From positions 32,001 to 96,000 of the forward strand of contig CAVQNT010000003.1 in the NCBI GenBank assembly GCA_963714275.1: a DNA stretch of 64,000 bases. Direction: 5' to 3'. A program made the translations under genes and the position numbers. The notes under the pieces were generated by a model. It worked only from the letters and a program-made list of their open reading frames with translations. It was not told where the DNA came from and searched no databases. This DNA is from Candidatus Bathyarchaeota archaeon. Its GTDB lineage: Archaea > Thermoproteota > Bathyarchaeia > Bathyarchaeales > DTEX01. Shown here one piece after another: positions 198 to 43,237 of the stretch; positions within the stretch are counted from its first letter, which is position 1; the number at the start of each line of letters is the position of its first letter.

Positions 198-348
198 TCA
201 TAAGCTGACGGATTTCGAGATGTTTGCTGCCATAATCTCCTCGTTGTTTGGCGTCTTCACGAAAGCTGGGACATTCCTCTGTTTCGTCGCCTTGTAAGAA
301 ACAAAAAGTCATTCACCAAGATCCAGACTCTGTTGTTTTATCAAGCAG
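198..348 (-). pseudogene. C-terminal stub of a HerA-like ATPase, a diverged homolog of 36395..38174
   Basis: Manual translation gives LLDKTTE[+1 nt]LDLGE*LFVSYKATKQRNVPAFVKTPNNEEIMAANISKSVSL*, versus the HerA tail LLDKTTELDIGEWLFVSYKATKQRNVPAFVKTPNNEELVTGNLLKTINL*. Confidence 0.9.
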
Positions 349-354
349 CCCGAC

Positions 355-1047
355 TTACTCTTCTATCATTTGGCAAAAATATACCCTATATCCCCTTTGC
401 TCAGATGGTGAGCTTATAAAAGAAGAGTTGTCTCGTTTTTTGTAGAAGTATAGTCCTAATGCAATTATGGTCAAGACAATTATAATGACTCCAAAGAACA
501 TGTATACAAAATACCACGGTATCGGGTCGATAATTGCGAAGGTTTCGATGCTATCCTCGAAGTTGGAAAGGAACTGCTGGTATCGAGCTGTGACAGCAGC
601 GTACGTTACAATATATATCCTCAGGTTCCTGACCATCATGACCATGTTAATCATGAGATCATACCCCCCTGTGGAGACAGCGGCAACAATCTCATAAGCG
701 TTGACACCATTGATGATCCTCTCGGACTCGGAAATGATAAAGGAACTGTTGAACATTGTTGGATACTGGTCCTTGATGGATGTAGCCAAATCTTCCAGTG
801 TTATATCAGACGAAGTGGTTTCAATATTGATCTGAATCAGTACAAGGCCTTCATCCTCCCATGTCGGCTCGAAGAAGGTTACCATAGCAGTTCCCGATGT
901 TGTCTCATTAATAGTCCATCCTGAAGGTTCCTCAATCGAAAAAAAGTTCGCATTACTTGTATAAGCATGCACGGAATCCACAGAAACATGTAACAAAAGA
1001 ATAATGACCGCAACCGTCAACGTTTTCTTTATACCTAGAACCATCAA
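355..1047 (-). CDS. Secreted, membrane-anchored PsbP/DcrB-like domain protein
   Basis: N-terminal signal peptide; FSIEEPSGW and IYIVTYAA...FEDSIETF pattern of the PsbP/Mog1 fold; C-terminal TM helix. Confidence 0.65.
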   Translation of the reverse strand: MMVLGIKKTLTVAVIILLLHVSVDSVHAYTSNANFFSIEEPSGWTINETTSGTAMVTFFEPTWEDEGLVLIQINIETTSSDITLEDLATSIKDQYPTMFNSSFIISESERIINGVNAYEIVAAVSTGGYDLMINMVMMVRNLRIYIVTYAAVTARYQQFLSNFEDSIETFAIIDPIPWYFVYMFFGVIIIVLTIIALGLYFYKKRDNSSFISSPSEQRGYRVYFCQMIEE

Positions 1048-1259
1048 ATAGCCTCATTTTCTGCATTATTCAAAAAGTGCTCTTAATAGCCTTTTGCATC
1101 ATTGTTCGAAAAAACAAAAAAACCACCAAAATGGTAACTTTTTAACATACAATGGTGACCATGTTTACAATGAAGGTAAGTATCTTAACTACAACAATCT
1201 TAATGAAAACCTAACCTAATAATGAATAGAGTATATTAATCCAAAAATAAGGAGGAAAA

Positions 1260-2634
1260 ATGATGAATAATCGAAGTAATATGTCTATTCAACTTCATCC
1301 CGATAATCTGCATTATTTCTTGTTTCGAGGCAAACCTACTATTCTCGTAACCTCAGGAGAGCACTATGGGGCGGTATTAAACCTCGATTTTGATTACACG
1401 TCGTATCTTAAAGAATTACATTCTAACGGACTTAACCACACACGTCTTTTTTCTGGCGTCTATCGTGAAGTTTCTGAGTCATTTGGTATTACGGATAATA
1501 CGCTAGCTCCATCACAAGACTGCTACATTTGCCCTTGGGTACGTAGTAGTGTATCAGGCTGCTACGATGGAGGAAATAAATTTAACTTAACCAAATGGAA
1601 TGAAGCATACTTTGAACGCTTAAGAGATTTTTTCACTCAAGCCAGCTATCTAGGCATTGTGGTGGAGATGAATCTTTTCTGTCCCTTCTATACTGAGGAA
1701 CTTTGGAACGTAAATCCTATGAACGCAACTAACAACATCAACAATGTTGGTGATTGTGATAGAACTGAGGTTTACACCCTTAAGCATAAAGACTTAACCA
1801 TGGTGCAGGAAGTCGTTACCCGAAAAATCGTTCAGGAACTCAAGGGCTTCGATAATCTTTACTACGAGGTTTGCAACGAGCCATATGCAAGCGTAGTGAC
1901 GACGGATTGGCAGCACAACATCGTCGACATAATAGTTGATGAAGAAAAGGAATTCGCAGCCAAACACCTGATTTCAATGAACATCGCTAATGGAAGGGCG
2001 AAAATTCAGAATCCTCACCCCGCAGTCTCTATTTTCAACTTCCATTACACCCACCCGCCTGACACAATCGAAATGAACTACAGAATAAACAAGGTCATAG
2101 GAGAAAATGAAACCGGCTTCCGTGGTAAAGAAGACGTACTTTACCGCACCGAAGGCTGGGACTTTCATCGCAGGCGGCGCACTTTACAATAACCTAGATT
2201 ACTCCTTCACCTGCAAACATCCAAAAGGAACATTATCAGAATATAACTCTCCCGGCGGAGGCAGCCCAAAACTGCGTCACCAACTAAAAATTCTGAAGGA
2301 CTTCATAAACAACTTCAATTTCATCAAGATGAAACCAGACAATAAGGTTATTAAAGGTGGATACGTCAGCAGTCCATTGTCTGGCACTCCAACTCAAGCT
2401 AACATTACAGCTCGTGTCTTAGTAGAAGCAGGTGAACAGTATGCGATCTACGTTAATGGTGGTACAAAGGTCGACGTAAAAATAAGCCTCCCTAAAGGTC
2501 ACTATTATGCGGAATGGGTAGACACGAAAACCGGAAGAATAGAGAAGACCGAAGAGTTTAACCATGCTAGCGGAAACAAAATACTTTTTTCGCCAGATTA
2601 TAAAGAGGATATAGCATTACGAATAATAACATAA
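1260..2634 (+). CDS. GH5-like (clan GH-A) glycoside hydrolase with a C-terminal collagen-binding-like beta domain; frameshift near 2165
   Basis: ORFs 1260..2192 and 2107..2634 join; CNEPY acid/base and ENETG nucleophile-like motifs. Confidence 0.7.
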
Positions 2635-2671
2635 AAAAAATAAGCTTGCTAGAGCGAATTAGCGCGCGCGC

Positions 2672-2761
2672 AAGAAGCCTCTGGACTCTTATGACACCGT
2701 ATTGAAAATGGAGCTAGATGGAAAACCTGAGACGGTCACTAACTTCCGACAAATACCTTAG
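2672..2761 (+). pseudogene. C-terminal stub resembling the tail of an alpha-L-fucosidase (GH29)
   Basis: Reads KKPLDSYDTVLKMELDGKPETVTNFRQIP*, matching the P-x-D-x-x-DTV-x-x-x-ELDG-x-P tail; no start, preceded by GCGCGCGCG. Confidence 0.55.
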
Positions 2762-2880
2762 ATGCCAAATTTTATTTTATATTACGATTTTCGCATAAAG
2801 GAGCTAATGGTAAACACATACACTGAAGGTATGCTAGTTAGCATAAGCTGGTGGTAGTGATTCGAGGAACCCGATTTTTC

Positions 2881-3856
2881 CTAATGTTGATAAATCTCAA
2901 GATTTAACCAGGCGCGTTCACTTTCTGTTAAAGAATGGTTAAACGCTTTGATATTATCCTCCAACTCTTGACGGTTTGCTGCGCCAACTATGGGAAACAC
3001 GTTCAACTTAGAACCAAGGATGTAGGCAAGCACAAGTTGAGGGACACTTATCCCCTTTTCTTTAGAGAGAAGTAACGTTCGTTCTAGTCTCCTGAAGTTT
3101 TGTTCATGACAATATGCCTTAAGACATGCCTCATCCAGTGTCGATTTTTGCTCCTCGAAATTGTCAGGAGTAATTCGTCCTGAAAAAAGACCACGAGCAA
3201 GACTTGAGTATGCTAAAATTGGCATCTGATTCGCTATGTACCACTCTTGTGCCTTAAGGTTCATAGGACCACTTATACTCACACAACCTCCTCCCCAAGG
3301 ATCCTCTACCTGTTCAGCCAAACTATAATTAGGGCTACTAGCAACAAAAGGGGTTAAACCATGCTTTCTAGCATATTTGTTTGCTTCAATAATGCGTTGG
3401 TGTGTCCAGTTTGATCCACCAAAGGCATGAATTATGCCCGCTTGTAAATGTTCATTCAGTATTTCCACGATCGGACCCACTGAAACTGCTGGGTCATCTC
3501 GATGAAGCATATACAAGTCAATGTAGTCAGTCTTTAACCGAGCTAGTGAGTCGTATAGGTCAGAGGTTAAGTCAAAGGGGGTCACACGTGAACGATCAGC
3601 ATTAGGATGGCATCCTTTAGAAATAATAACAACCTTGTCTCGATTTCCGCGCTTTTGCATCCACTGACCTAATCCACGTTCGCTATCACCTCCAGCATAT
3701 ACATGTGCAGTATCGAAAGCCTGTATAGCCTAACTCAAAAGCAGCATCAAGAAGCTCAAAACTCCGTCCAAGGTCTCGTACTGATATGATCATTGTTCCT
3801 AAGACTAGCCGTGAAACAGGCTTAGTAACACCAGAGATAGTTCCATTCATCAACAT
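2881..3856 (-). CDS. Aldo/keto reductase; frameshift near 3720
   Basis: N-terminus read manually as MLMNGTISGVTKPVSRLVLGTM...FDTAHVY joins ORF 2881..3660 (DYIDLYMLHRDD). Confidence 0.85.
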
Positions 3857-4845
3857 GTGTAATCCACTTTTTTCTCCATTGGGTAGGTTAACCCAATCAA
3901 AGCACGCACATGATCCATAGTCTGTACAATAGCGAGTGATTCGTCCAAAGGCATCCTCGAACTTTCAGTTTTCCCAGCTTTTAGACAAGACATAACTTCA
4001 GCTGCCTCAAAGTGGTATCCTGCTTCTCCCAAATTTTTCACCGGATCCTTACCTTCTATTTCTAAAACCGCAGAAGTAGTATGCCAGAAGCCTGGAATGT
4101 GAATAGAACCTAAAGTTCCTAAGATTCTTGCTTCCTGAGGAGTGTTTGTCCGTATTGAGCAGAATAATAATGCTAATGCTCCATCATCATAACGTAATAA
4201 CATAGCAGTCTGTTCATCTACGCCAGTCTCTCCGATATATGCATCAGCCATTACCTGCCTTGGAGAAGCATCATAGACCATGTAAGTAAGGGCAACCGTA
4301 TAAACTCCGACATCTAAAAGCGCCCCACCAGCTAGATTCGGATTTAACAATCGGTCTTGAGGATTCCATCCTGTTCGGAATCCAAAGTCGGATAATAATA
4401 TACGTACATCACCAATGGTCTTCTTCCTTAACCAATCTTTAACCTGTTGTATTACGGGAAGAAAACGGGTCCACATACCTTCCATAAGGAACAATTTTTT
4501 CTTCCGGGCCAATTCCACCATTTCACGTAATTGCCCTTCATTCATAGCCATCGGTTTCTCACAGAGAACCGCCTTATTGTTTTGTAAACATAATAATGTA
4601 TGTTCCTTGTGAAAGGTATGAGGAGTGGCTACATAAATAACATCAACATCGGGATCTGTTACTAATTTATCATAATTACCGTATGACCGTGCTATACCGA
4701 ATGTCTGGGCAAATTTATTAGCCCTTGCTTTAGAACGAGAGCCAACTGCAAGAAGATTGGCTTCCGGAAGGTTTACTAAATCAGTCGCGAATTTTGTAGC
4801 GATTCGACCAGGACCGAGGATTCCCCAGTTGATTATGCTTTTCAT
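3850..4845 (-). CDS. Gfo/Idh/MocA family oxidoreductase (D-xylose 1-dehydrogenase/dihydrodiol dehydrogenase-like)
   Basis: WGILGPGRIA, VLCEKP and GGALLDVGVY motifs. Confidence 0.9.
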   Translation of the reverse strand: MKSIINWGILGPGRIATKFATDLVNLPEANLLAVGSRSKARANKFAQTFGIARSYGNYDKLVTDPDVDVIYVATPHTFHKEHTLLCLQNNKAVLCEKPMAMNEGQLREMVELARKKKLFLMEGMWTRFLPVIQQVKDWLRKKTIGDVRILLSDFGFRTGWNPQDRLLNPNLAGGALLDVGVYTVALTYMVYDASPRQVMADAYIGETGVDEQTAMLLRYDDGALALLFCSIRTNTPQEARILGTLGSIHIPGFWHTTSAVLEIEGKDPVKNLGEAGYHFEAAEVMSCLKAGKTESSRMPLDESLAIVQTMDHVRALIGLTYPMEKKVDYTC

Positions 4846-5209
4846 TACATCCCATATTTTTCACTTAATCTATTTATAGGCAATCGTAGAAAGAGTCGAT
4901 TTAATTATCGAGGGTGTTCTATAAATCTGCGTAAAAACTTTGGTATTGAAGACTTGAACTTGGAGACTTAAACTTTAAACCACGTATAATGTTTATTATC
5001 GCCAGCAATTAGGAGGTAAAACATCAATATTTAGGGTTGTAAGAAAAATTTTGTTATGTTTAAATTTTTTTCAGAAATAGAAGAAGAATTTAAATCGTAA
5101 AGTACATTTCTAATCAGATTTCGAATAAAAAAATGTTTTGGAGAAACTGAAAAGATAAGCTTCCTCAGACTTCTGAGAATTACATAACCTTCAGTTAAGA
5201 AGAAGAACG

Positions 5210-5298
5210 GAGAAGACCGAAGAGTTTAACCATACAGGTGGAAATAAACACTTGTTTCTCCAGATTATGAAGAGGACATAGCGTTACGATTAACTAGC
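5210..5298 (+). pseudogene. C-terminal stub of a homolog of the GH5-like gene at 1260..2634
   Basis: 24 nt are identical to 2542..2565 (GAGAAGACCGAAGAGTTTAACCAT); reads EKTEEFNHTGGNK/TLVSPDYEEDIALRLTS versus EKTEEFNHASGNKILFSPDYKEDIALRIIT. Confidence 0.9.
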
Positions 5299-5382
5299 TT
5301 TTTCTGTGGTCATCATTTCTATTCAATGAGTTGAAAAGTTTTAAATTTACTTACATTTATCTTCTAGGCTAGGTTTAGCGAA

Positions 5383-6499
5383 ATGTGGGATTTAAGGTAT
5401 CAAAAACAGAGAAGAACAAAAGAGGAACTCATTAAACATCTAAACGAGTTTAACCTTGACCTTAAATTTAGTGTTGGAATTTGGTACTTTAGCTCTATGG
5501 GAAGTAGGTTTCATGAACCTTACGGAGATCCAAAAAATGTCGAAGAAAGGCTAGATATAATTAAGGAAACAGCAGAATATGGAGTCAAGGCTGTAGAGGC
5601 ACATTATCCCAGTGAAGTCAACGAGGAGAATCTTCATCAATATAAGCAACTGGAAAAAGAAACTGGGATCAAACTCGTCAACGTTGGACCTTTTGCTTTT
5701 TACAGCAGAGATTTTGAATTTGGTTCCCTTTCTAACCCTTCTGAAAAACGTCGTAGAAAGGCTCAGGAGATGCTTGTTGGCTGTTTGAGGCTTGTAAAAG
5801 ACTCCGGTGCCACTCACTGCGGTATATGGCCTGGCATCGATGGATACACTTACTCTTTTGGAACAGTTTTTTACCAGATGTGGGATTTTTTTGAAAGGGC
5901 ATTAGCTGAAGTTATGGATCAAGTTCCCGGAGTCACGGTGGCTATTGAAACCAAGCCTTATGAACCTGTGCCAAACAACATTTACAGAAATACGTCGGAT
6001 GGAATTATAGCAGTCTAGAGATATTGAAACTAGATTGAAATCGAAGACTAACCAGGACCTTCTTGAGAAAGGATACGCCTTAGTTGGGCTTCAACCTGAA
6101 ATAGGTCACATACTTATGGGTTTTGAGGATGCTGCTTATGCTTTTAGTAGAATAGCGAGAGAAGGAAGGTTGGTTCATACTCACTGGAACAGCCAACCGT
6201 CGGGCAATTATGATCAAGATCTGAATGTTGGAGTCCTAGGATGGGAGCAAGCTGAGGCAGCTTTGTATGCTTTGAAGGCAATAGGTTATCGTGGTTACTT
6301 TGGAATAGACATTAACCCGGAAAGAATGCCGCCGTTGAAAGCCATCGAGATTAACACCAAGGTGCTTAGGATAATGAACGAAAGAATCAACAATCTTCCT
6401 CACGAAGAAATTGTCGAATGCTACTATGATCCAGAAAGACATAGAGGAGATTTGGAATTAATATTAGCTGGAGCAAAAAAGAAAGGGGCAAAAAATTAA
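5383..6499 (+). CDS. xylA: Xylose isomerase-like TIM-barrel sugar isomerase; frameshift near 6015
   Basis: FSVGIW, WPGIDG, IETKPYEP, PEIGH and YDQD metal-ligand motifs; directly upstream of xylulokinase. Confidence 0.75.
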
Positions 6500-6579
6500 A
6501 TTAAAACTTACGGGTTTCCTAGAATTGAACATCTCGTGATGTTGAATATTTAAATATAGAAAACTTTCACAATTTTATA

Positions 6580-8105
6580 TTGAAAGAAATGGTTCAGTTA
6601 ATGGGAATTGATGTAGGTACATCAAGCACTAAAGTTTTAGTTGTCAACGAGAACGGAAATGTTAATGCTAATGCTTCCTGTGACTATCCTATTTCAAATC
6701 CCTCTCCAGACTGGGCTGAACAAGACCCAGAATGGTGGTGGAACGCTGTTAGAATTGGAGTTAAGAAAATTTCGAGTCTTTCCAAAGTTAAATTATCCAA
6801 TATTTCAGCTATCGGTCTTACAGGACAGATGCATGGAACTGTCTTGCTTGGAAGAGACCTCAAACCACTAAGACAATCCATAATTTGGGCGGATAAAAGA
6901 AGCATCCCTCAATGCAAGGAAATCTATGAAAGAATTGGCAAGAAAGAGATTCAAAAAACACTGTGTAACCCGATTATGCCAGGATTTATGGCTGCTTCTT
7001 TGCTTTGGATAAAGGAAAATGAACCTTCAATCTTCAAAAAGGCTTTCAAAGTTCTCCCGCCTAAAGATTATATTAGGTTCAGACTAACAGATTCCTGTAT
7101 TACGGATGTCTCTGATGCTTCAGCAACGCTTCTTTTTGATATAAAAAGAAGGAAATGGGCAAGTCAGATACTTTCAACACTTGGATTTTCGTCGGAGTTA
7201 TTTCCTGAATTCTTTGAATCTGTCAATGTAACCGGCGAAGTATCAGCTGACGCCTCCAACGAAACTGGTTTACCTAAGGGACTCCCAGTCATAGCTGGAG
7301 GAGGAGACTCTCCAGTTGGAGCAGTGGGTTGTGGAGCCATAAAAGAAGGCATAGTCTCTTCAAACATAGGCACTGGAGGACAGATTTTCACCACGCTAAA
7401 TAAGCCTGAAGCTGATCCGTTAAGTCGGATTCATACTTTCTGTCACGCTGTTCCGGGGAAATGGCATCTTCAAGGAGCAATTTTGGCAGCTGGCTTATCA
7501 TTAAGATGGTTTAAAGAAAATCTTGGTCAAATGGAACAGACCTTGGGAAATCTCTGTAACACTGATCCCTACAATCTACTTTCCAAAGAAGCTGAATTAG
7601 CAGAGCCTGGTTGTAAGGGTTTGATTTTTGTTCCTTATCTCCTTGGGGAACGTTCACCTCACATGGATCCTAACGCAAGAGGCGTTTTGTATGGTTTAAG
7701 TTTGGAACATAAAAGGTCGCACTTGGTTAGGTCAGTCATGGAAGGTGTTGTTTATGCTCTCAGGGATTCATTGGAAATCTTCAGGGAATTGGGAGTTAAA
7801 GCTGAAAAGGTTATCGCTCGAGGAGGCGGAGTGAGGAGCTCATTATGGAGGCAGATCCAGACTGATATCTTCAATATGGAAGTGATTTCTACGAATGTCA
7901 AGGAGGAAGTCGCTTATGGAGTGCGCTTCTTGCCGGAGTCGGTGTCGGCATTTATGATGATTTAGAAAAGGCATGCCAAGAAACTATTCGTACTTCTAAC
8001 AAAGAGATGCCAAATTCTAAAAGAACAAAAGTTTATGATGAATATTACAAGATTTATACTAGATTGTATTCCGCGTTAAAAAACATCAATACTATTCTAA
8101 TGTAA
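6580..8105 (+). CDS. xylB: Xylulokinase (FGGY family); frameshift near 7920
   Basis: GIDVGTSSTK, TGQMHG and PYLLGERSPH motifs; C-terminus ALLAGVGVGIY...ILM* continues in another frame to 8105. Confidence 0.9.
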
Positions 8106-8271
8106 GAAGTCTTTTGGATAGTTTTCAATATCCTATAATTTTTATTAAAGACATTTCATCCTCTCGATGTTTTACCGAGATTTAAGGTAATAAAAGTCTC
8201 TTATGAAAAAATAAATTGGATAAACAATAATTTTAAAATTGTGAATACTGAACATATTGAGAAAGAAGAAA

Positions 8272-9308
8272 ATGAATAGTCGAGAACGTGTGATAAAGGC
8301 TGTAGAATTTAAGGGACCAGACCGTGTGCCTAACGGTTGCTATTGGCTACCAGGAGCCTTTAATAAGTATGATGGAGAGTTGGAGAACCTGTTTCTCCGC
8401 TACCCAAAAGACTTTCACCAATTCGTAGTAGCTTCTCAAGATCGTGGCTACCCTATCAAGAGGGCATTAACAAAGATATCTGGGGATGTGTCTGGAAAAA
8501 CATTAAACCAGGAATTCTTGGACGCATCATTGAACATCCATTATCTGACTGGAAAAATCTAGAAAATTGTAAGCTGCCTGACCCTTCTGGACTCATCAAC
8601 TTCAACGAGACTAATAAAAAATATACGTCTAAATAAACACGAACGCTACATTTTAGGAGACTCAGAAAACTTCTTTGAACGGCTACATTGGTTACGCGGT
8701 TACGAAAAAACATTAATAGACATAACGACAGGCAGTAAAGAATTCAAAAAGTTAATTGACGCCATGTTCAATTTAAAGGTCAATTTCATTAAACGTTGGT
8801 TTGAGCTCTGACATTGATGGTCTCTACTTCTCAGACGAAAGGGGAACCATGCAAGGGCTAATGATAAATCCGAAACTTTGGCGCGCATACTTCAAGCCTT
8901 GCTACCAAAAAATGTTCGACATTGTACATAAGGCTGGAAAACACGTATTCTTTCACAGCGACGGAAAAGTCATAGACATCATACCAGACTTCATTGAAAT
9001 GGGGGTTGACGCAATAAATGTCCAAGTGAACCTCATAGGCATCGACAAAATAAGCAAAGAATTCGGCGGAAAAATTTGCATTCTCGCTGATGTTGACCGA
9101 CAATTTATTCTTCCATTCAGTACAGTGGATGGAGTAAGGGATCACATAAAAAACATAATTCAATCTTTAGCACATTTCAATGGCGGATTAATAGCATGGG
9201 GAGAAATAGGACCAGATGTCCCATTATCAAACGCAGAAGCTTATGCTACAGGCATTTGCAGAATATGGGAAATATGAAAAAGCACAACAACATAATTTCA
9301 TCAAATAA
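8272..9308 (+). CDS. Uroporphyrinogen decarboxylase/MtaA-CmuA family protein, with several frameshifts (may be a pseudogene)
   Basis: MNSRERV...PDRVP start, FFERLHWLRG, FFHSDG and DRQFILPF motifs spread over several frames. Confidence 0.75.
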
Positions 9309-9315
9309 ATTTGGT

Positions 9316-10673
9316 TTAATAGAAAGTTTTGTCCTGAATACGCCTTAGCTTCAAAAGAAAGGAATCCTCGTTCAATTCAACATCATCATAAGTCAGTACG
9401 CCATCTGATGGAACCTTTTTCGCCACATGAATGTTTTCAGCTAATCCGAGTGGCAGAAGATTTTCATTCCTGGCAACATCCGCTTTTTCTGCAAGTCCAT
9501 ACAATGTGTATCCTCCTCCGCCGTCTAAAAGGTCTCCAGGTTTTAGAGATCTCTTTGTTGCAGCTGAAAACCTCAGCTGAAGGCACAGTTGGTAGCGGAC
9601 AACCTGTAGGCTCATTATATAAAACGGCTCGAATCAGCGAGATTGAGGCTTCAAGACCTGCCCAATGATATGGGCGATAAACCAGCGCGTTTTTGCCTTT
9701 TCCGCCTCTTGGCGACTCATACGTTTTAAAGAGTCCTCTTACGTCTCTGCTGTCGCTGGTGACTACAACAAAGACTCCCCATCGGATATCGTTTTTGACC
9801 TGCGTTCCGTCCGGTCGAACACGGGTGATAACATCGATGACACCCTCGTCTTCTAGAATGCCGCCATCTTTTTTCAAGCTGAAGAAGCTTAGGTACATCC
9901 TTTATTGAGCCCAGCGGAAAATGCATACCCCTAATATCTGGCTTAAGCCCTGTTGCGTTGCAGACTGCAACCATCTCCACAGCACACTTAGTCGTGTCGA
10001 TAAAGGAATTATACATTTTAGGGTTCAGTTTCAAACGGTCAATCTCTTCTTGCGTGAACCCGAACCTTTGCAATGAGTCGGCGGGGGTCCCATGTCTCCA
10101 TTCAAGCCTTGCTGCTGTTCCTTCACCTGCAGCCACTACCTTGAACCCTGAGGAAACAGCCCAGTTGTAGAGTTCGCATATTAGAGCTGGCTGGTCTCCA
10201 TAGGCTTGGCTGTAGACGACACCTTGCTCTTTCGCTATTTTAGACAATATGGGTCCAACAACGCATTCGGCTTCCACAGTAGCCATCACAATGTTCTTTC
10301 CACTGTTTATCGCGTCATAAGCATGTTTTGCCGCAACTTCTGGCACACCCGTTGACTCAAGGATGACATCCACATCGCTTTTTATTAGCACATCACTCTT
10401 TTTTGTTATAACAGGAATCTTCTTCTCTATGTGATGGTTTGCTGAGTCAACATCGTTTACTTTTATTATTTCCCGAGGCTTTCGATGGGCAAACCTTACG
10501 AATCCACGAGTTGCCTTATCTTCGTCGATGTCGGCTATGATAGAAACTGTCATTCCCGGAATTCTGGAAACTTGCCCTATTGTTGAACAACCGAAGAATC
10601 CCGCGCCAATTACGCCTACCTTGATAGGAGTGCCACTTTTTTCAAGGTCAATTAGCTTATACCTCATAATCAT
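9316..10673 (-). CDS. NAD(P)-dependent oxidoreductase, homoserine dehydrogenase-like, with a C-terminal SAF domain; two frameshifts
   Basis: GVIGAGFFG, GDQPA, YRPYHW and SAF motifs (LDGGGGY, LLPLGLA, LTYDDV). Confidence 0.8.
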
Positions 10674-10728
10674 ACACTTAAGTAAAATATTTGAACACTC
10701 AAGAAATAAGGATTTAAAATGTTAGGTC

Positions 10729-11767
10729 GTGACACTGATGAAGGTTTTAGTTATTGGCGGTACGGGTCTAATCAGCGCAGCTGTTACTCGTTTTCTTGTT
10801 GAACATGGTGATGATGTGACTATTTATAACCGAGGGAAAAGAGTTGCAGAAGTTCCCAGCAATGTAAAGAGGGTTGTGGGTGACCGTCAAAATTACCCAT
10901 TTTTTAAAAGCCAAATAGTGAAAATGGGAAATTTTGATTGCGTCATTGACATGATCTGTTTTTTGCCTGAGGAAGCTGAAAATGCAGTCCGCATATTTAA
11001 GGGTCGAACTAAACAATACATTTTCTGTAGCACTGTAGACGTATACACTAAACCAGGTAAACAATATCCCGTAACTGAGGATGCTGAAAAGAAACCTCAA
11101 ACAACTTTTTCTTATGCCTTTAACAAGGCTGCGTGTGAAAGAATCCTTTTTGATGCAGATCGCAACAAACATTTTTCTTTGACTGTCATTAGACCAGCCT
11201 ACACTTATGGTGAAGGGGCAGGAATTCTACACACTTTTGGGTGGGGAACATATTTTCTCGACCGCATACGCAAGGGAAAATCTGTCATCGTACATGGTGA
11301 CGGAACCTCTTTTTGGGTAGCCTGCCATCGGGATGATGTGGCTCGAGCGTTTGTTGGGGCAGTGGGCAACGAAAGTGCATTTGGGAAGTCTTATCACGTG
11401 ACTGGCGAAGAATGGATGACGTGGAACAGTTATCATCAAAAGGTTGCTGAAGCCTTGAATGCACCGCTACCTATACTTGTTCATATTCCTACTGATTTTC
11501 TGCGAAAAATTGCGCCAAAACAGGCTGAATTGTGTGCAGAGAACTTTATGTTCAACAACATCTTCGACAACAAAGCAGTCGAAGTCTGACTTAAGCTTTA
11601 GATATACTGTTCCTTGGGTTGAAGGAGTCAGGCGAGTTGTAAGTTGGTTGGAGAACCATGGAGGATTAGAAAACAGCGACGACTTCCTGTTTTATGACCA
11701 AATTTTAGAAGCTTGGCAACGACTCAGTGAAAACATGAAGACCCAGTTGTCAGGCATAATTCTTTAG
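10729..11767 (+). CDS. NAD-dependent epimerase/dehydratase; frameshift near 11580
   Basis: GGTGLIS, STVDVY and YxxxK (YAFNK) motifs. Confidence 0.85.
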
Positions 11768-11901
11768 CCCAATTAATAATCATTTTTGCATAATACTCTA
11801 GAGGCAAATGGAAAACATGGCTTCCTATTTGCCTTCTATTTAATAAACCATTTATAGTAAAAGGAAAACAAAATCTTTCTAATTGTAAACACACTCTGAT
11901 T

Positions 11902-12975
11902 GTGACCATTATGGCGACTTTGGATAATGCGTTTAGTTCGTCTTTGCCGCTGATTCCAAAACCAAAAATTGATTTGTCGAAGGTGCCTAGACTCGTTATG
12001 GCATTTTATCATGATTGGTACGGAAACGTTTCTGGTCCATCTGGCCAATGGGCTCATTGGGATCATCCGATTTGGGTTACGAGTACTGGGCAGGAAGTTG
12101 GAAGGCATAATCCGAACAATTATGTTAATTCCAAGCGGAGAGACATTGGGGCAACTAACTATCCACTAAAAGGCCCTTACGATAGCAGAGATCAAGAGAT
12201 AATTAAATGGCACATTAAGTCAGCTCACGAAGCAGGCATAGACGTCTTTGCCATTGATTGGTGGGGAGATACGAGTAACAAAGAATTTACAGATGCGACC
12301 ATGAAGATCCTTATGGACCTAAATGAAGAAGAGGATCTGGGAATGAAGTTTTGCATCCTTTTTGATGGGCTTTGGGGTCATCCGCAGCCACCATTACTCG
12401 ATATAACAATTACAAGGTTGAAGTATGCGATTAAGAAGTACGGAAATAGAACATCTTACCTTAAAGTGGAAGGTTTACCTGTCTTCTTCATTTATGCGAC
12501 AGAGGTTTATGCCGTCAACACGTGGAGCGACATAATATCTACAATTAGGCACGACGGTTATTCTGCACTTTTCTTCAGTGATGCTTTCAAAGAAGAATAC
12601 GCTGAAGTGTTTGATGGATTACAAAATTATGCACCTCCCGGATTGTTTGTTCCAAAACAAAATTTCACGAAAGCTTACCTTAACATAGCGCAATTAGCAA
12701 AAAAACGAAGTGAACCTTACGGATTTGCTGTAATTCCTGGATACAATGACACTAAGGTTAGACAGCCCGGCATGATAGTCTCCCGAGAAAACGGCGCGAC
12801 ATATGAAAAGACATGGAAAGCTGTCCTCTCCAGTGGCTGCCAATGGGCTCTAATCACTAGCTGGAATGAGTGGCATGAAGGAACAGAAATTGAACCAAGT
12901 ATAGAATATGGACATCAATATCTAGAGATGACAAAAAATTACTCAAAAATTTTTAAAACTGAAAGGAACCCATAA
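11902..12975 (+). CDS. Glycoside hydrolase family 99-like (endo-alpha-mannosidase/mannanase-like)
   Basis: AFYHDWY, GPYDS, PGYND and ITSWNEWHEGTEIEP motifs. Confidence 0.85.
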   Translation: MTIMATLDNAFSSSLPLIPKPKIDLSKVPRLVMAFYHDWYGNVSGPSGQWAHWDHPIWVTSTGQEVGRHNPNNYVNSKRRDIGATNYPLKGPYDSRDQEIIKWHIKSAHEAGIDVFAIDWWGDTSNKEFTDATMKILMDLNEEEDLGMKFCILFDGLWGHPQPPLLDITITRLKYAIKKYGNRTSYLKVEGLPVFFIYATEVYAVNTWSDIISTIRHDGYSALFFSDAFKEEYAEVFDGLQNYAPPGLFVPKQNFTKAYLNIAQLAKKRSEPYGFAVIPGYNDTKVRQPGMIVSRENGATYEKTWKAVLSSGCQWALITSWNEWHEGTEIEPSIEYGHQYLEMTKNYSKIFKTERNP

Positions 12976-12980
12976 ATTAG

Positions 12981-13070: not shown

Positions 13071-13147
13071 AAGCTAGTAATATATATCAAAAGTTGAGAA
13101 TACATAACTCAGGATATTAGTGAGCTAGTAAATGAGTGTTTGAAGAT

Positions 13148-14763: not shown

Positions 14764-14779
14764 TAGCTAGCTAGCTAGC
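14764..14779. repeat. (TAGC)4 intergenic tetramer repeat
   Basis: TAGCTAGCTAGCTAGC. Confidence 0.8.
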
Positions 14780-33124: not shown

Positions 33125-33929
33125 TCAATGTTTAGCAGAGTGCCACCAGAAGGATTCGGGTTTAACCTTATTTTTTAACTCGTCTTCTTCCCTTCTTTCT
33201 TTGTCTGTTAGAGAATAGTCTTTAAGATGTCCGACGAGACAGTCTTCTTCTAATTGCTCTAATGTTGTCACTCCCGGTACCACCGTAGCGTATTGGCTGA
33301 TTGAGAAGCCATTTTAACGCCAGTCTTGCTGGCAAAGCTCCCCAAGCAACGGGCTTCATAATAGTTATTCCAACCCCTTTGCTATTGCAAAGCGGGATAA
33401 GTTTTTTCAGCGGTTCACGCTCAACAACATTCATTGGTACTAAAATGATTTCAAAATTAAATCGCTCAAGCGCCATAATCAAGAGGCAGTCTTGATGACT
33501 AGTGCATCCAATATGCCTAATTAAGCCTTGATCACGCGCTTCTATAAGCGCTTCAAGCGCGCCTCCAGAGCCAAGTCGCACATCAATGTCTCGTTTGTCT
33601 TCTAGACAATGAAGATGATAATTATCTATGTAATCTGTCTGCAAACGTTCAAGAGACTCATGAATGCTCTTCCATGCTTCTTCTTTAGTCTTAGCACCAG
33701 TCTTGGAGGAGATGTAAATCCTTTTTCGATCATCCCCTAAACCTTGACCTAGATTAATTTCGCTATTAGTATAAGCATGTGCAGTATCAAAATAATTAAC
33801 GCCATAATCTAATGATTTTCGAATAATTTCATCCGGTTGCTTTGTTTTTGAAGTATCACCCAACCAGCCGCAGCCAAAACCAATGACTGAAACTTTAAGA
33901 CCTGTGTTCCCTAACTCTCGATATTGCAA
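33125..33929 (-). CDS. Aldo/keto reductase; frameshift near 33290
   Basis: YRELGNTGLKVS, FDTAHAY and DYIDNYHLH motifs; C-terminus ATVVPGVTTLEQLEED continues in another frame. Confidence 0.88.
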
Positions 33930-36394: not shown

Positions 36395-38174
36395 TTAGAG
36401 ATTAATGGTTTTCAATAGATTTCCTGTCACAAGCTCTTCATTATTAGGTGTCTTCACGAAAGCAGGGACGTTCCTTTGTTTTGTTGCCTTATATGATACG
36501 AAGAGCCATTCTCCGATGTCTAGCTCGGTTGTTTTGTCAAGCAGGTCGTAGCTTAGACTGAAAGCGTCTGCAATGACCATTCTGTCATAGAACCGTGGAA
36601 GCACACTGACAAAGTAGCTATGCAATTGCTGTAGGGCGTTCACGTTGAGGTGGGCTACACGCTGACTGCATATCCAGCAGTTCGCACGGTACTTTCTCCC
36701 CTGACGCAAAAGTGCCTCAACAGCTGTGTTTGATTGTTCTGTGAAATCCTCTCTTCTTGTTCTGTCAGGGATGAACTCTTGAGCCTCATCTAGGACTGTC
36801 AGCACCGTTCTTCCAACACCTCTTGTTTTCTTCAGCCACAATAAGCGATTTATGAAGCGGCTAACGACCTGTCGGGCAATGTCAGGTTCTGGAGTGTAAA
36901 CAATGCTTATGCCTGAAAAGTCTTCAGTTGCAACTTTGGCAGCTAGCCATTCAGCATTTCTGATAACCCCTTTTCCCTGCTTTTCCTTGGTGGGGGCTTC
37001 TCCATCTAAGACCTTGATTATGGCTTGAATGTCTTTTACAGTGCCAGACATATGATGAATAGAAGATTCGAACTCTTGCAGTATTGCTTTGAGCTCTTCT
37101 TTTGCTATATTATCCTTGGTAATATCTTCTAATAGGGTTTCGTCGCTGTATCCTCTTTCCAAGGTGAAGGCGTTCAGATTGTCAAGTGCTATTGTTGCTT
37201 GAATTACTTCTTTCTCTTTCCCTCGTGCTATTCCACCGACGAGTTCCAGTATGAGCCCCATAGTGAGAGGGATTGATTCTAGCGGGTAAGAAAGTGACAG
37301 CCTCTGAACCTTTCCGTCATCAACCAATTTCTTAATCGCCTGGGCAATAAGGTGCTTGTCGAGCTTCATTTCAAGTGTTTCCGGAATGGCTTGCGAATCC
37401 ATGATTCTATCAATGTCTTTACCAAAGTCTTCTGTCGAGAACAATTTTGGAGCAAGATCCAAGAGGTGTATAAGGTATTCTCCAGCAACATCGAAAACTA
37501 CAACAGATAGATTAGGTATACTTGCCAACGATTTCCTTAGAAGAATAGAGCTTAGATTTGACTTTCCGCAGCCGGTGAAGCCAAATATTCCAGTGTGGTA
37601 ACGAACCATCTCAGACATTTTTACCGTAAGTGGGAGATCAAAACCGATAAGTGTTCCAACTTCTACCCCGCCTGCTATGCACAGAAAATCATTAACAATC
37701 TGTCTAGAAAGAATATTAGCTTCGCTTCCTACTAACGGCGTTAAATTTGACCTTTCAAAAGCAAGCCTATCATCATGAATGTTCATTCTATAATTTGTGG
37801 GGACAGCAACCACATCAATCCATGTTTCCTCACTAGCCTTCCAGCTGCTGTCAATAGTTTCCAAGAACTCCTTCCGAATCACCTTTGGCACAGAAATGTC
37901 CATGCCAAGCATTTGATAATGCATCGGACGGACACCCACAACCTCATAAATAATAAAAGTCTCGCCACCACCTGTTGGCCTTTTAAAAGTCTATAAAATT
38001 TGGCTCATGCAGTTTGTCCAAGACTTCAAGACTGAACTTTGCTTCAGCCACAGCAACCTGGCTTGTTACAGTTACCTCACCCTCCCTCATCCTGGAGGTT
38101 CTAGTCGATATCCTGTGGGCTCTCAAACGTGCAGAAAACCCGCCGTTCATTTCATCAAACACTTCATACAACAC
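36395..38174 (-). CDS. herA: HerA/FtsK-like ATPase with an N-terminal HAS-barrel-like region; frameshift near 37985
   Basis: Walker A GFTGCGKS, Walker B VLDEAQ and R-x-GRKY...SQR motifs; ORFs 37983..38174 and 36395..37939 join; coupled to nurA. Confidence 0.85.
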
Positions 38175-39976
38175 TATATCTCCATTAACGCTGCTTTTTC
38201 ACGCGCTCCCTCAGTCTCTCTCCTAATATCCCTAAATCTACGGGCTATAGTGAATATCTTTTGCTTCCTAGAGAGACTTCCTAACTCAAGATCAGCTACG
38301 CCTCTAAGCATACCCTTCATCATCTTCACCTCATTTTTGACAGCTTTGTCAGCTAAGTACAACAACTGGTTATGACCTATTGCTTCGATAACTTCGGGAT
38401 TGTCACACTTCGAAAGAAGACAGAGAATAAAGGTGTCAAGGGGATTCTCTTTCTTGCCTTCCCAAAAGGGATGAATCAAAGCTTTTCTTCCCCTTTCAAA
38501 AACTTCAATGTCCGCACCATAAGCATTGTCGATTTTAGGCACATAAAACCTGTCATAAAGAAACGTGGGAGATCGGACTTCAAAATCTGACTTGAACTCT
38601 CTGAGCTGAAAATAGCCCTTGACAAACTGTCTCTCCATAGAAACTACTTGTCTAGCAGCTCTCATCGGAACATCTCCTTCCCCTTCAATAAGAGTCGTGA
38701 AACAAGAATCATAGCTAAGTGTGCGCCAAGGAACCCTGAAAAGGCCAGGATTAGTACTACTGAGTATGGTTAAAAATGCGCGGTCATGCCTAAGATTAGG
38801 AAGCTTCTCCTCTTTGGGTATCAAGCCCTCAATTCTGGCATAGGGAATGGCTGCACGTATGTAATCTGAGGCAGAGGTGTCCTTAGCTATCCCGACAACA
38901 AGAACATTACTGGTCAGAGCCTTCTCCCTAAGCATTTGAATTAACATGACATTAACAGCGTTCATGTCAAGAACGGTTAACCAAGATTCGCCTTTCCCCA
39001 ACATCAACGGATGCTCAGAAGAATTGAAGACTGTCTCCACAACTTGTGTAGTAGTGTCCTTAACTCTTAACCAATAGTCTTTCACGTGACCCTTGAGTCT
39101 AATAACGGGATTCTCACGTTCTAAGTCGATGTCTTCAGCAAGAAGCCCATTATCCGAAGACTTATGCATCTTAACAAGCCTTTTAAGAAGCCTTTTGCCA
39201 GCCTTATCAGAAATCCCCAATCTTACCGACAATTCCTGTGCTGAGAGCTCACCAACCTGCAACAATTTTTGAACAGCAACAAAAGGAAGATACTGGCTCC
39301 TATCTGACACCCAATTCATTCCAGAACCAAGAACAGACGCTAAACTTAAGTCAAGAAGTGTAAGGGGACCATGAACAGTCTCTTTTCCGAAAAGAACCGA
39401 TCTCCTAATCCTCAGAAGCAGCCGAAGGTCTCTGGCTAAAGGTCCATGTGTACCATACAATGGCCTATCGAGAAATAGAAGCCGAACTCTGTCATCCTCA
39501 ATGGCCTTCAACGCTAGAGACAGCTCTGCCATCGTCATCAAGGCAAACGGTATACGTTCAGCAGACCTCGCTAAATCCTGCTCAGTAGAACCTTGCTCAT
39601 CAGTAACAAAGAAAAGGTCCTCAGTCCACAAAGGAACCGAAGCTGAAGCCGCAAGCCTCTCATCTCTGGAGACATTGTCTAGACTGAAATGAATCTCCTT
39701 GCCCACAGAAAAATCGCAGCGGAAACCAGAGGCACAGACATAAAAAAGAAGCATTTCGAGAAGTTCATCAAACTCCATGGAACCGTCGATGCCAACCGCC
39801 ACATAATTGCCTGGCTCCAAGAAAGCAGCCTGAACATCAGAGGACTTAGGACACCTAATACAGGGACTCAGCCTTTCCCTGTTCCTTAGCTCTTGTATCC
39901 TGCTGGTAAGTAAATCAGCCAACTCTGAAGTCTGCTTCCTAAGTCTCTCCGCAAGAAGAACCATTTTAGACCCCAA
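38174..39976 (-). CDS. nurA: NurA-family nuclease, long form with an inserted wHTH
   Basis: GIDGS, FLDRPL and VGIAKD motifs and a GHNQLLYLADK C-terminal motif; inserted LSAQELSVRLGIS HTH. Confidence 0.8.
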   Translation of the reverse strand: MGSKMVLLAERLRKQTSELADLLTSRIQELRNRERLSPCIRCPKSSDVQAAFLEPGNYVAVGIDGSMEFDELLEMLLFYVCASGFRCDFSVGKEIHFSLDNVSRDERLAASASVPLWTEDLFFVTDEQGSTEQDLARSAERIPFALMTMAELSLALKAIEDDRVRLLFLDRPLYGTHGPLARDLRLLLRIRRSVLFGKETVHGPLTLLDLSLASVLGSGMNWVSDRSQYLPFVAVQKLLQVGELSAQELSVRLGISDKAGKRLLKRLVKMHKSSDNGLLAEDIDLERENPVIRLKGHVKDYWLRVKDTTTQVVETVFNSSEHPLMLGKGESWLTVLDMNAVNVMLIQMLREKALTSNVLVVGIAKDTSASDYIRAAIPYARIEGLIPKEEKLPNLRHDRAFLTILSSTNPGLFRVPWRTLSYDSCFTTLIEGEGDVPMRAARQVVSMERQFVKGYFQLREFKSDFEVRSPTFLYDRFYVPKIDNAYGADIEVFERGRKALIHPFWEGKKENPLDTFILCLLSKCDNPEVIEAIGHNQLLYLADKAVKNEVKMMKGMLRGVADLELGSLSRKQKIFTIARRFRDIRRETEGAREKAALMEI

Positions 39977-40269
39977 ACAGTATCAATTGTTCCAAAATTT
40001 ATCTTTTTTCTAAAGTGGCTAAACTCTTATCTTTCAATGACGCTCCAAACAACATTAATCTTGTTAGGGTAATGGTTGACATCCAAATTTTTTCCCCAGC
40101 CTTTGTGAATGTGAACGGAAAGCGCTAGGTCTTCCCTGTATGGTTATTGCACACAGGTTGAGGATCTCGTGAAGATAGCTGCTAATAAAATAAAATTCCA
40201 ACATGTTCATAAAGTTGACAGAGTAAATACTTAACCAAAAAGTTACAGTAACTCTAGAAGAAGTATCAT

Positions 40270-42931
40270 ATGAATAAAAATGGTGAATGGAAGACAATTC
40301 AGGGCGATCATTGCAGAACTGGACGCGTAGAGATGCCGGGTAATATTAAAAGCCCAAAGATTGTCTGGAACCTAGATACATCTGCCAACGAAATATACTT
40401 CCTTGTCAATGCGGACAAAATGGGCTGGCAGAGCCACACCATCAAACTGACTGATGTACCAAAATGGAACAGTGAGATGGAAGAGCATTGGGGTTTACGA
40501 ACTACAAAAGTGGATGTAAGCGGGGACGGAATGTTACATGATATCTTTGAAACGCCTCCGCTCGAAGTGTGGGGAAAATTTTTGCCGGAGGTGCCAGGCT
40601 ACCAGAAGATACGTTTCACGAATACCTGGACTGGTCCTGGACAAGCCAACTTGCAGCTACTTTCATATGAGAATGGTATCGATAAGCCCAGAATAGTGTG
40701 GGACATAAAGTTCGAACCCAAAGCGGAAGCTCCAATGTTAATTGTTGTTGATGTAGACGGAGACGGCCGGTTGGAGATCGCTGTGTCCCACTGGTACGGC
40801 GTAACCGTCTACGACCTGTATACTGGGGCAATGAAGTATCAAAAATTTTATCGTGGAAGCGATTTCGGCCGTCAGTATGGCCATTTCAGTGCAGTCATGT
40901 TTCCAGACGGCAGGGTGGCTCTTCTAGTAGTTGGCGATTTTTCGCCACATATTAGTGTGCTGATGGTTCGGGATGGTAAACTTGAAGTGCTCTGGTACCT
41001 CACATTCGAGAATGACCGCAATCAAGGTATCGATCGGCGGGTGACTATCAACCGTGTGGGTCCCGACCCTGCCGACGACTATGACGGCGACGGCCAAGTT
41101 GAGGTCATGATGAACTTCTTCAACGGCGCGGGTGATGACCGCTGGCACCTCATCGGATATGACGCCCTAACCGGTCGGGTGAAATATGATATTGGGGATT
41201 TTTACTTGGATGGCACCGTTGATGTTGACGGTGATGGTCGAAAAGAATGGGTTGGACGCCGTTATGGTGGTCGAGCTCTTAATACCTATGCACCTTTGCT
41301 CATTCTAAAACCTACTAATGGAAGTAAGACATGTGAAATCTGGAGTTTCCCGCGGGGCCACTGGTCGCTACGCCGGATTCTGCCAAGGCTGACAGTCCAA
41401 ACCTTTCAGTCAATAGGCACAAGGGTGCTCGAACTGGTGTCACACGGAAATGAGCAAGGAACGGGAGCCATCCTTTTCTTTACTGAACCGGTAAGCGACA
41501 CAAATATTGAGAAGCTTTCAGCCTTGAAATTTGAAATTGGCAAGCCGATTATTTTATGGGCTGTTGAAGGTTCATCCTATGGCAGATTGAATGCTCTCTC
41601 AGTCCGCGACGAAGGTGTGCTCGTTCGGCTTGAGCAACCTCATAGTCGTTTCGCAGAGATGCGTGCTGAAAATGCCAGCCTTGAAGCCATAGGCTTGGGA
41701 TGCTTGGTTTACTTTGCACCGCAGCCACTGGTTCTCAAAGATGGTAATAAAGCCCATATCATTGTGGCCACATCAGCCTGGCAGATTTGCTGTTTCCAGT
41801 CTCAAGGTCAGCGGGAGCCTAAGATGCTCTGGGCTTACCCGGGGAGACCGATGTCGACCAGTCGGTCCTCTCGTGATTCATGGTTTGGTCTGGAAGCTGG
41901 CGACATAGACGGTGATGGCGTCTCTGAGGTTCTTTACGTGACTGAGAATCCTGGGGGTGGAGCTCGCGTCTTTGCTAGGGATTTGGATGGCACGATTCGT
42001 TGGCAGTATGATTTTCCAGGGTTTTGTGGTTATGTTGCCGAATGGGGTGACTGCATGACGACCTTTTGGACTGCTGGTCGTTTCATCAGGGCTGATCGTT
42101 TTGACGTTTTTGTCAGCAACCGCCGTTCGACTATGCATAGTGATGAGTCTGTGGTAATCGATACACAGAAGAACAGCATAGTTTGGCAAAAGGATACGCT
42201 TGAAGTACGCGAACCATGGACGAGTGCATATCAACACACACGTGGGTATGGGGGCTCACTACCAGCACTTGCCGATTTTGACAATGATTGCCTAGATGAC
42301 ATTGTGCTCACATATCCTTGTGAACTCTCGATCGTGAAGGGTAAAGATGGTAGTCGAGCTCTTCGTTGAAAACATGGGTCCCGTGGCAGGTACACACTCG
42401 ATCGACCGACCGGATCAATCAGGCTTCTGGCTAATAGGCGGAAAAATACTCGTTGCAGATCTTGATGACGACGGAGTGAAGGAAACTTTGGTGACGCATC
42501 CCGGAATGCTTATAGTTTTTAAGCACAATGATCAGCGTAGCTGGATAGTTTGGCGAACCGAGCCTGGAGATGGTATTACCATTCTGCCTGCCATAGCGGA
42601 CACTGATGGTGATGGCGTTTTTGAACTTGGCCTGCCAGGGTGCCGCGATGGCTTTCGATGTGTTGACCCTAAGACAGGCAGAGTTCTCTGGAATATGGTG
42701 GGAAGCGCCTCTTCCAACTGTGTGGCATGCGATATTGATAGTGACGGACGAGAGGAATTTCTCTATGCTGATGGCGAATTACTCAGAGCGGTCAGAAACG
42801 GAAATGTTGTATGGGAGGCAAAATTACCAGCCAACATTACACAACTGGCTATCGCAGATGTAGACGGTGATGGCACCTCAGAAATTCTAACTGGCGCTGA
42901 AGATGGAAAAATGTATTGCATAGATGGATAG
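40270..42931 (+). CDS. FG-GAP/VCBS repeat beta-propeller protein; frameshift near 42350
   Basis: About ten D-x-D-G-D-G-x-x-E calcium-blade motifs. Confidence 0.8.
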
Positions 42932-43108
42932 ATGATGGTTCGTGGAAAATATTCAATTTGCTTATTATAATGGTAATGTTTACTCTTTTGTTTCTGACAT
43001 AAATGCATAAAATTATCTGGGATAAATGAGTTCGAAGTTTTCACAGATCACCAAAAGGTCTTCTTTCATCACGAATCCCAGTTTCTGACCTACTCGGGTC
43101 CAATACTT

Positions 43109-43237
43109 TCAGTGTTCTCTCCTCCAAGATTCAAGGACGGGCTGACGTTGATTTTTCTGACATATTTCTTTGATCAGACACCTTTCGCACCATCTCTTTG
43201 AACACAACTTAGATCCTATTGACCATGAGAGTAGTAA
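43109..43237 (-). pseudogene. C-terminal stub of an endonuclease III/HhH-GPD-type Fe-S cluster protein
   Basis: Reads LSWSIGSKLCSKRWCERCLIKEICQK..., a W-x-I-G-x3-C-x4-C-x2-C-x5-C cluster loop; no upstream coding region. Confidence 0.65.

Follow-up and report, generated by a model that had tools for sequence, protein, structure and literature searches.

In a stretch of 64,000 nucleotides (nt) from a Candidatus Bathyarchaeota genome (assembly GCA_963714275.1, contig CAVQNT010000003.1, positions 32,001 to 96,000; "the window" denotes this entire stretch) the spacers between genes contain five short, truncated pieces of genes, here called stubs. We read these verified stubs, with a probability of roughly 0.55, as non-functional gene relics that lie at the junctions of past insertions, replacements and deletions in a region of high gene turnover. 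A preliminary description of the window had listed seven stubs, all within positions 198-43,237. Five of them are real, four being identified by a partner in the window and a nucleotidyltransferase piece by its database relatives, whereas a proposed tail of an endonuclease III (EndoIII)-like Fe-S protein has no relatives. The description had the spacers "filled" with stubs and most stubs as 3' tails. The verified ones occupy ~9% of the spacer DNA in 1-43,237 (~590 of ~6,840 nt, summed from the list of gaps) and comprise three tails, one internal piece and one 5' head. Each retains between 8 and 74 codons of a gene that is 99-514 codons long and cannot yield a complete product. The stubs with a partner are, judged from sequence, broken pieces of alleles that had diverged under purifying selection.

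The herA tail relic and its resident counterpart

The first pair consists of the following two features, the relic having been found by tblastn and self-blastn of the window.

198-348, minus strand: 3'-tail relic of herA, 50 codons plus stop
36395-37939, minus strand: resident herA, 514 amino acids (aa), in a conserved nurA-herA pair, Pfam DUF87/HerA

Positions 210-348 of the relic align with the resident tail at 36407-36544 over 139 nt (76% identity, E 8e-21), and the relic begins 6 nt past the stop codon of g01, a PsbP-like gene at 355-1047. The NCBIfam HerA models match the resident protein, but under their cut-offs. Scanning 185,579 species genomes for HerA yielded 13 loci (L001-L013), all in metagenome-assembled genomes (MAGs) of Bathyarchaeia or other Thermoproteota, the best identity being 81% at the amino acid level, a value that the resident HerA shows to both L001 and L002.

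The relic carries two lesions only, a T inserted at 327 and a nonsense change of TGG to TGA at 311-309. It reads LLDKTTE at 348-328 and keeps its own stop codon at 200-198, the translation that allows for the extra T being LLDKTTE-LDLGE*LFVSYKATKQRNVPAFVKTPNNEE. The 39 nucleotide differences from the resident gene are distributed over codon positions 8/4/27 (chi-square p 9e-6); among the 50 codons compared, 23 differ synonymously and 11 non-synonymously, and the opening 37 codons show two residue changes despite the nonsense codon and the 1-nt insertion. Within a conserved core of 113 nt the relic is identical to L001 herA at 99/112 sites (88%), compared with 88/112 (79%) for the resident gene and 88/112 for L002, while the resident gene, L001 and L002 mutually share 91/112. 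At 14 sites of the core relic and L001 agree against the resident gene, the opposite pattern being found at 3 (p 0.013). The earlier proposal that the stubs stem from diverged alleles instead of being recent duplicates of the resident genes is thus borne out by this affinity and by the bias towards third positions, and the herA relic can safely be taken as a separate allele within the clade of the resident gene, L001 and L002 that is not derived from the resident gene. The relic also looks like a mosaic with an L001-like core and a resident-like end (Fisher p 0.005). We rejected this as a sign of a crossover because the last 39 nt of L001 herA are an outlier to all sequences compared.

Relics of three further window genes

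Three more stubs have a partner in the window.

5202-5293, plus strand: g03-type tail relic, last ~30 codons, with a 1-nt deletion, 90 nt upstream of g06
2107-2634, plus strand: g03, its resident partner (tail at 2534-2626), with a weak Collagen_bind_2 match in Pfam
12987-13073, minus strand: internal xylB relic, 27 codons, residues 387-413, with a 2-nt deletion and ending in a change of CGA to TGA
6580-8102, plus strand: resident xylB, xylulokinase (TIGR01312 XylB, 476 bits against a cut-off of 380.25), interrupted in this assembly by the loss of 1 nt near 7922
23967-24000, minus strand: abrB-like 5' head, ~9 nt of leader and the first eight codons (MLVTETVM)
15892-16191, minus strand: g17, AbrB/SpoVT-like small protein (PHROG antitoxin family, E 9e-4), probable start region 16135-16169

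In self-blastn the g03-type relic matches 2534-2626 over 93 nt with 84% identity, one 1-nt gap and E 3e-20, and its tblastn match accordingly consists of two segments in different frames; the differences from the resident tail fall on codon positions 7/2/9. As its frame overlaps that of g02, g03 probably represents the downstream portion of a single gene, g02/g03, that is frameshifted, and the relic is assigned by homology to a gene with a glycoside-hydrolase-associated C-terminal domain.

The xylB relic aligns from 12987 to 13065 on the minus strand with 7744-7824 of xylB (81 nt, 85% identity, E 4e-18; codon-position differences 4/3/11). It had been described as a tail, but corresponds to an internal piece of the 505-aa protein, is inverted relative to the resident gene and lies 12 nt past the stop codon of the GH99 gene g14. 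The allele affinity of this stub is uninformative, as its amino acids match the resident protein at 22/27 positions and the metagenomic protein P0125 at 23/27. Among the metagenomic XylB relatives P0123 (505 aa) is 97% identical over the whole protein, its residues 1-448 corresponding to 6589-7932 and residues 445-505 to 7920-8102, and two more reach 87% over the C-terminal region searched.

The abrB-like head is the shortest stub. Its self-blastn match to 16135-16169 is marginal (35 nt, 89% identity, E 5e-4), and it lies 7.8 kb upstream of its counterpart g17 on the same strand. The g17 translation contains two 'IP.E.R' repeats, which we take to be AbrB-like. Adjoining the stub is g27 (24167-24466, minus strand, 99 aa), which gives a borderline match to the Pfam family SSV1_ORF_D-335 (E 1.2e-4, scoring 22.7 bits where the cut-off is 22).

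All four pairs claimed to link a stub to an intact gene of the window were recovered, with E values from 8e-21 to 5e-4; the partners xylB and g02/g03, however, are frameshifted in the assembly. Pooled over the herA, xylB and g03-type pairs the differences fall on codon positions 19/9/47, in agreement with the reported excess of third-position changes. This synonymous bias, together with the small number of lesions, implies that both copies were under selection for most of their divergence and that truncation is comparatively recent.

A nucleotidyltransferase relic

The fifth stub has its relatives in the databases.

27343-27567, plus strand: C-terminal-half relic of a putative AbiEii-like nucleotidyltransferase of ~162 aa, 74 codons plus stop, no internal lesion

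Positions 27343-27564 correspond to residues 89-162 of the 162-aa metagenomic protein P0001 with 92% identity over 74 aa, confirming the nucleotidyltransferase tail of the preliminary description. Of the 424 candidates found, 331 had an E value of 0.01 or lower; the best 120 matches listed are proteins of 140-193 aa that are 63-92% identical to the stub, and among these 120 only P0096 carries PF08843 and the name of the AbiEii/AbiGii toxin family. Taken alone, the stub gave no match in Pfam, NCBIfam or PHROG and only noise in a phmmer search of the PDB, and the N-terminal catalytic half was not found in the window in any frame.

Searches of the spacers

Two further open stretches had been listed as stubs.

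43109-43237, minus strand: Cys-rich open stretch of 45 aa, claimed as EndoIII-like Fe-S tail, no detectable relatives
2672-2761, plus strand: open stretch of 32 aa, claimed as GH29-like tail, its extension containing a stop

For 43109-43237 Pfam gave nothing, the PDB only RING/TRAF noise (E >0.6), and an exhaustive phmmer search of 1.84 billion representatives two weak Cys-repeat matches, none at E 1e-10 or better and none to HhH-GPD. The cysteines are spaced C-X4-C-X2-C-X5-C, the canonical spacing of EndoIII Fe-S proteins being Cys-X6-Cys-X2-Cys-X5-Cys. The stretch is probably not a gene relic. The segment 2672-2761, a short query of 32 aa, had no match by tblastn in the window, in Pfam or in the Atlas.

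We also compared 200 stop-to-stop pieces of at least 25 aa that overlap spacers with Pfam. None of the seven stubs matched a family, and the sole real matches were continuations of frameshifted neighbour genes. A spacer ORF taken as control (44647-44871, 75 aa) had no homologues in a word-based search, which is weak evidence. Across the whole window neither an Rfam family nor a tRNA gene was detected, and a scan of 1-14000 for bacterial-type promoters and terminators performed no better than on shuffled sequence. When all spacers were searched for a shared flank motif or repeat, no consensus resembling an attachment (att) site emerged, the only hit being a 38-nt inverted pair at 44611-44648 (plus strand) and 45837-45874 (94.7% identical, E 2e-9). 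This pair flanks the methyltransferase gene g46 (44879-45766), whose G+C content at third codon positions (GC3) is 0.38, compared with 0.33 for g45 and 0.61 for g47; g46 and the repeat could be a small cassette, or the repeat could be a common regulatory or terminator sequence.

These searches bear on the idea, already raised in the preliminary description, that selection keeps the stubs as functional non-coding elements, either antisense or guide-like RNAs or recombination anchors. The position of the xylB relic 12 nt 3' of g14 and on the opposite strand would suit it, as read-through from g14 would yield ~80 nt antisense to xylB with 85% identity, an argument from position only. With no Rfam match, no structure or motif common to the stubs or their flanks, and nonsense and frameshift lesions combined with a divergence pattern as in dead coding sequence, we consider such a function scarcely credible.

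The herA neighbourhood in relatives

The 13 herA loci stem from 13 different MAGs, none of which shows a second herA copy, which is weak evidence as the MAGs are incomplete. Upstream, nurA precedes herA in every one of the 11 loci whose sequence extends that far. Between nurA and herA the window has an ORF of 71 aa (37986-38198, minus strand) that is kept in the relatives, being detectable in L001-L011 and 84.5% identical in L001, and that matches no Pfam, NCBIfam or PHROG family. Downstream, the flank is different in every Bathyarchaeia relative examined:

L002: ThiF, MoaE, ThiS, GH5 cellulase
L004: ECF transporter component, amidohydrolases
L005: Cas6, PIN, DUF4143
L008: class I (Glu/Gln-type) aminoacyl-tRNA synthetase
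L006, L007 and L013 (more distant): Hjc and NUDIX, common to all three

These differences are consistent with rapid turnover whose breakpoints fall at genes or within them. In L007 and L013 AIM24 follows ~1.4-1.5 kb from herA, beyond Hjc and NUDIX, while the L006 contig ends earlier. The AIM24 gene of the window, g32, is separated from herA by 5.8 kb containing g33-g38, among them a frameshifted g15 paralogue and a 3'-truncated aldo-keto reductase. No counterpart of window positions 1-197 was found on the downstream side of herA in the 13 loci, L001 offering only 141 nt there; the contigs of L001, L002 and L005 stop near the nurA-herA pair.

Layout of the pairs and proposed origin

Three of the four pairs form direct repeats, in the order herA tail, 36 kb, stub; g03 tail, 2.6 kb, stub; and abrB-head stub, 7.8 kb, gene. 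In these three the stub stands at the opposite end of the putative insert from the intact gene, an arrangement that, calculated from the coordinates, would arise in at least three of four pairs by chance with a probability of ~0.05. The layout is no more than suggestive of homology-anchored insertion.

In the course of events that we propose, each partnered stub would have belonged, until fairly recently, to a functional allele carried by a different lineage of the clade, as the synonymous-biased divergence and the few lesions indicate. DNA of relatives would recombine via a short anchor within a gene common to both, and its other end would be closed by an illegitimate join or by single-crossover integration of a circular piece. 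Either route would duplicate or displace the anchor, one copy staying in the working gene and the second being stranded as a stub beyond the insert. In an alternative form, an anchor in the gene body would join illegitimately inside the recipient's own tail and displace that tail. Anchors in a 3' tail or a 5' head would keep the gene intact and could persist, whereas internal anchors would destroy it. The stubs without a well-placed partner, i.e. the nucleotidyltransferase half and the inverted xylB piece, would be remnants of truncation or deletion, as would the truncated aldo-keto reductases and the URO-D pseudogene described below.

Direct repeats that flank 36 kb and 2.6 kb, as the herA and g03 tail pairs do, would likewise result if site-specific integrative elements, which are targeted to the 3' ends of genes and bring along a replacement tail, had duplicated their attachment sites. 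The borderline SSV1_ORF_D-335 match of g27 could be seen as a trace of such an element, as SSV1 ORF D-335 is the SSV1 integrase. Apart from this match, however, no integrase or recombinase domain was found in the ORFs of the window, the scan revealed no tRNA gene, the longest identical runs within the pairs measure 13-24 nt (14 for herA, 24 for the g03 tail), and the flanks of different stubs have no motif in common. Moreover, the 2.6-kb "insert" consists of two oxidoreductase genes only and the 36-kb span includes AIM24, an ancestral neighbour of herA. Site-specific integration is thus very unlikely, given that integrase, tRNA, common flank motif and long identical core are all lacking.

Several observations weigh against relics left by insertion and replacement. 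The layout statistic is based on four pairs, and the xylB stub, internal and inverted, falls outside the expected layout. No intact nucleotidyltransferase copy is found in the 27 kb upstream of its stub. The synteny of AIM24 suggests that the 36 kb separating the herA copies is not foreign throughout. The tail of the resident herA is 81% identical to its relatives, the same as the preceding 300 nt, and as similarity does not drop a hybrid gene is not visible. When the herA stub was placed in a tree, as the preliminary description had proposed, the core sided with L001 at the sites given above, but maximum-likelihood bootstrap support for the grouping was only 43%, and over the full stub the affinity is gone (19 vs 14 sites, not significant) because the C-terminus of L001 is an outlier. 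Finally, neither a donor nor a pre-insertion state was seen, and we infer the insertion step from the layout.

Gene content, paralogues and larger relics

The window has a G+C content of ~40% and 65 modelled ORFs, with 9,824 nt (15%) falling into spacers. Its products include glycoside hydrolases, sugar kinases and isomerases, oxidoreductases, five URO-D-like proteins, an ABC peptide/sugar transporter and the nurA-herA pair, and toxin-antitoxin genes are found in addition to the genes for sugar use and the oxidoreductases. We regard it as a high-turnover accessory region for sugar utilisation in a Bathyarchaeia genome. Adjacent genes differ in GC3 from 0.30 to 0.61, with g31 (0.57) and g47 (0.61) being high and g21 and g33 (both 0.30) low, so that the window is a mosaic in composition.

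One larger relic was absent from the preliminary list.

8257-9277, plus strand: URO-D-like pseudogene, colinear with its paralogue g47, in which the reading frame shifts at least three times (1>0>1>2)

Its C-terminal part corresponds to positions 209-338 of the URO-D profile of Pfam, and at least three lesions in 1 kb are well above the general rate of frame breaks in the window. Two aldo-keto reductase paralogues are truncated as well, one lacking the first ~32 and the other the last ~90 profile positions (2881-3729, which is the 5'-truncated g04, and 33222-33929, both on the minus strand), and the missing parts were not found nearby in another frame. The variable herA flank, the spread in GC3 and these larger relics together fit high gene turnover in the region.

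The larger relics also offer grounds for a different origin of the stubs, as the last remains of resident paralogues that arose by local duplication, became pseudogenes and were deleted piecemeal, all with no transfer. Paralogues are clustered in the window (five URO-D-like, two aldo-keto reductase and three GFO/IDH/MocA genes, and g15 versus g34/35), the URO-D pseudogene and the 5'- and 3'-truncated aldo-keto reductases could be intermediate states, and tandem duplication likewise yields direct orientation. Nucleotide identities of 76-85% with a strongly synonymous bias and very few lesions, however, indicate that both copies were selected until recently, the core of the herA stub is nearer to the orthologue of another species than to the resident gene, and the 13 herA MAGs provide no case of two copies, which counts little given their incompleteness. 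On balance we regard decay of resident paralogues as rather unlikely.

Single-base frame breaks

At 16 junctions in the window adjacent ORFs on the same strand lie in different frames, and the break in xylB is the 17th, ~16 genes being affected.

Examples of frame-break sites: 6011-6018, 25825-25829, 48488-48495, ~7922, 16813-16844

For 13 of the 16 junctions Pfam or a paralogue shows that the two parts are consecutive parts of one family, the uncertain cases being g02/g03, g25/g26 and g43/g44. Each frame-broken gene has one clean lesion and otherwise conserved flanks. Restoring the frame requires the removal of one base in 13 of the 17 breaks. For three breaks (g06/g07, g29/g30 and g49/g50) a narrow interval or the coordinates of a profile allowed the site to be located, in each case at a CTAG; in xylB one base is absent near 7922, the C of AGCT as implied by the intact P0123. 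Within the intervals of the +1 breaks CTAG occurs 7 times compared with 2.0 expected (P 0.005) and AGNCT 11 times compared with 4.0 (P 0.003), both counts being post hoc.

Methylation of CTAG occurs in archaea. Residual long-read errors at methylated motifs have been described (PMC8011154), and the frame breaks are likely systematic basecalling errors of this kind; they may instead reflect a mutational hotspot. If they are basecalling errors, the region is not truly rich in pseudogenes, while the relics with several lesions and the stubs are still real. Two other explanations were rejected. Programmed +1 frameshifting at stop codons does not agree with g49/g50, where the shift occurs ~5 codons before the stop, with the differing phases of AGNCT, or with the xylB break, a 1-nt deletion in mid-gene, and reassignment of a stop codon is incompatible with all split pairs being in different frames. 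A palindromic (TAGC)n run, TAGCTAGCTAGCTAGC, is located at 14764-14779 in the spacer between g15 and g16 and overlaps both CTAG and AGCT.

The 17 single-base frame breaks give the impression of an assembly prone to errors over its 64 kb, which raises the question of whether the stubs themselves are artefacts, i.e. pieces of co-occurring related strains or species stitched into the consensus, and close relatives do exist in public metagenomes (XylB 97%, two more 87%). The junctions of the stubs, however, lie outside conserved sequence, as in the case of the herA tail next to the stop codon of an unrelated gene, and the stubs, 35-225 nt long, bear nonsense and indel lesions of their own. A long-read consensus assembly normally does not retain such inserts, which we also count against this explanation. 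We regard stitching as very unlikely.

Relation to known systems

Gene remnants, or pseudogene relics, occur in the intergenic DNA of decaying genomes such as those of Rickettsia and Mycobacterium leprae. The stubs resemble them in being short, truncated, lesion-bearing fragments between working genes and in forming a continuum with frameshifted genes. Unlike those relics, however, the window stubs match diverged alleles at 76-88% nucleotide identity with a synonymous bias and with at most one or two lesions, and they are young truncations of recently functional, probably foreign alleles and not slowly eroded resident genes. Orphan C-terminal modules displaced to a position downstream of the gene are known from rhs and cdiA, and here too a 3' tail that resembles the end of a complete gene would have been left behind when recombination replaced the tail. 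The window genes, in contrast, encode a helicase, a glycoside-hydrolase-associated domain and a small regulator, with no polymorphic toxins, immunity genes or tail arrays.

The proposed insertion step has its closest counterpart in homology-facilitated illegitimate recombination (PMC3240628) and in insertion-duplication (Campbell-type) integration. One homologous anchor combined with an illegitimate join, or a single crossover, can bring in foreign DNA beside a gene common to both and leave the anchor gene with a duplicated or displaced fragment, and three of the four window pairs are laid out in this way; the process is known from bacteria and would here operate in an archaeon. In Group II Clostridium botulinum islands split topB or rarA while supplying a replacement copy (PMC3673618), and as in the window an intact gene and the remnant of a second allele stand at opposite ends of different DNA. 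The window differs from these islands in that only a 50-codon tail remnant is present, with no 5' remnant and no mobility genes found, and in that the 36-kb block holds ancestral herA neighbours.

Taken together, the phenomenon is ordinary debris of recombination and deletion in a variable region and not a new kind of element. In practical terms, the real stubs are sorted out from the claimed ones and appear as dead fragments of diverged alleles, and the frame breaks are set apart, which would otherwise mislead gene calling and pseudogene counts. More speculatively, the stubs may be systematic footprints of how accessory regions of Bathyarchaeia are built, by repeated capture of DNA from related species via anchors of only 35-150 nt in the 3' tails or 5' heads of shared genes, with every capture leaving one anchor copy stranded. 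We consider this unlikely as yet, at about the level of paralogue decay or slightly below. If true, the insertions would be nested, with a 36-kb herA-anchored block holding the 2.6-kb g03-anchored and the 7.8-kb abrB-anchored inserts, and pairs of stubs and genes could give both the order of insertion and the donors. If relics do mark junctions, they would allow the exchange of carbohydrate-utilisation genes among uncultured Bathyarchaeia, and the partners involved, to be traced cheaply from sequence.

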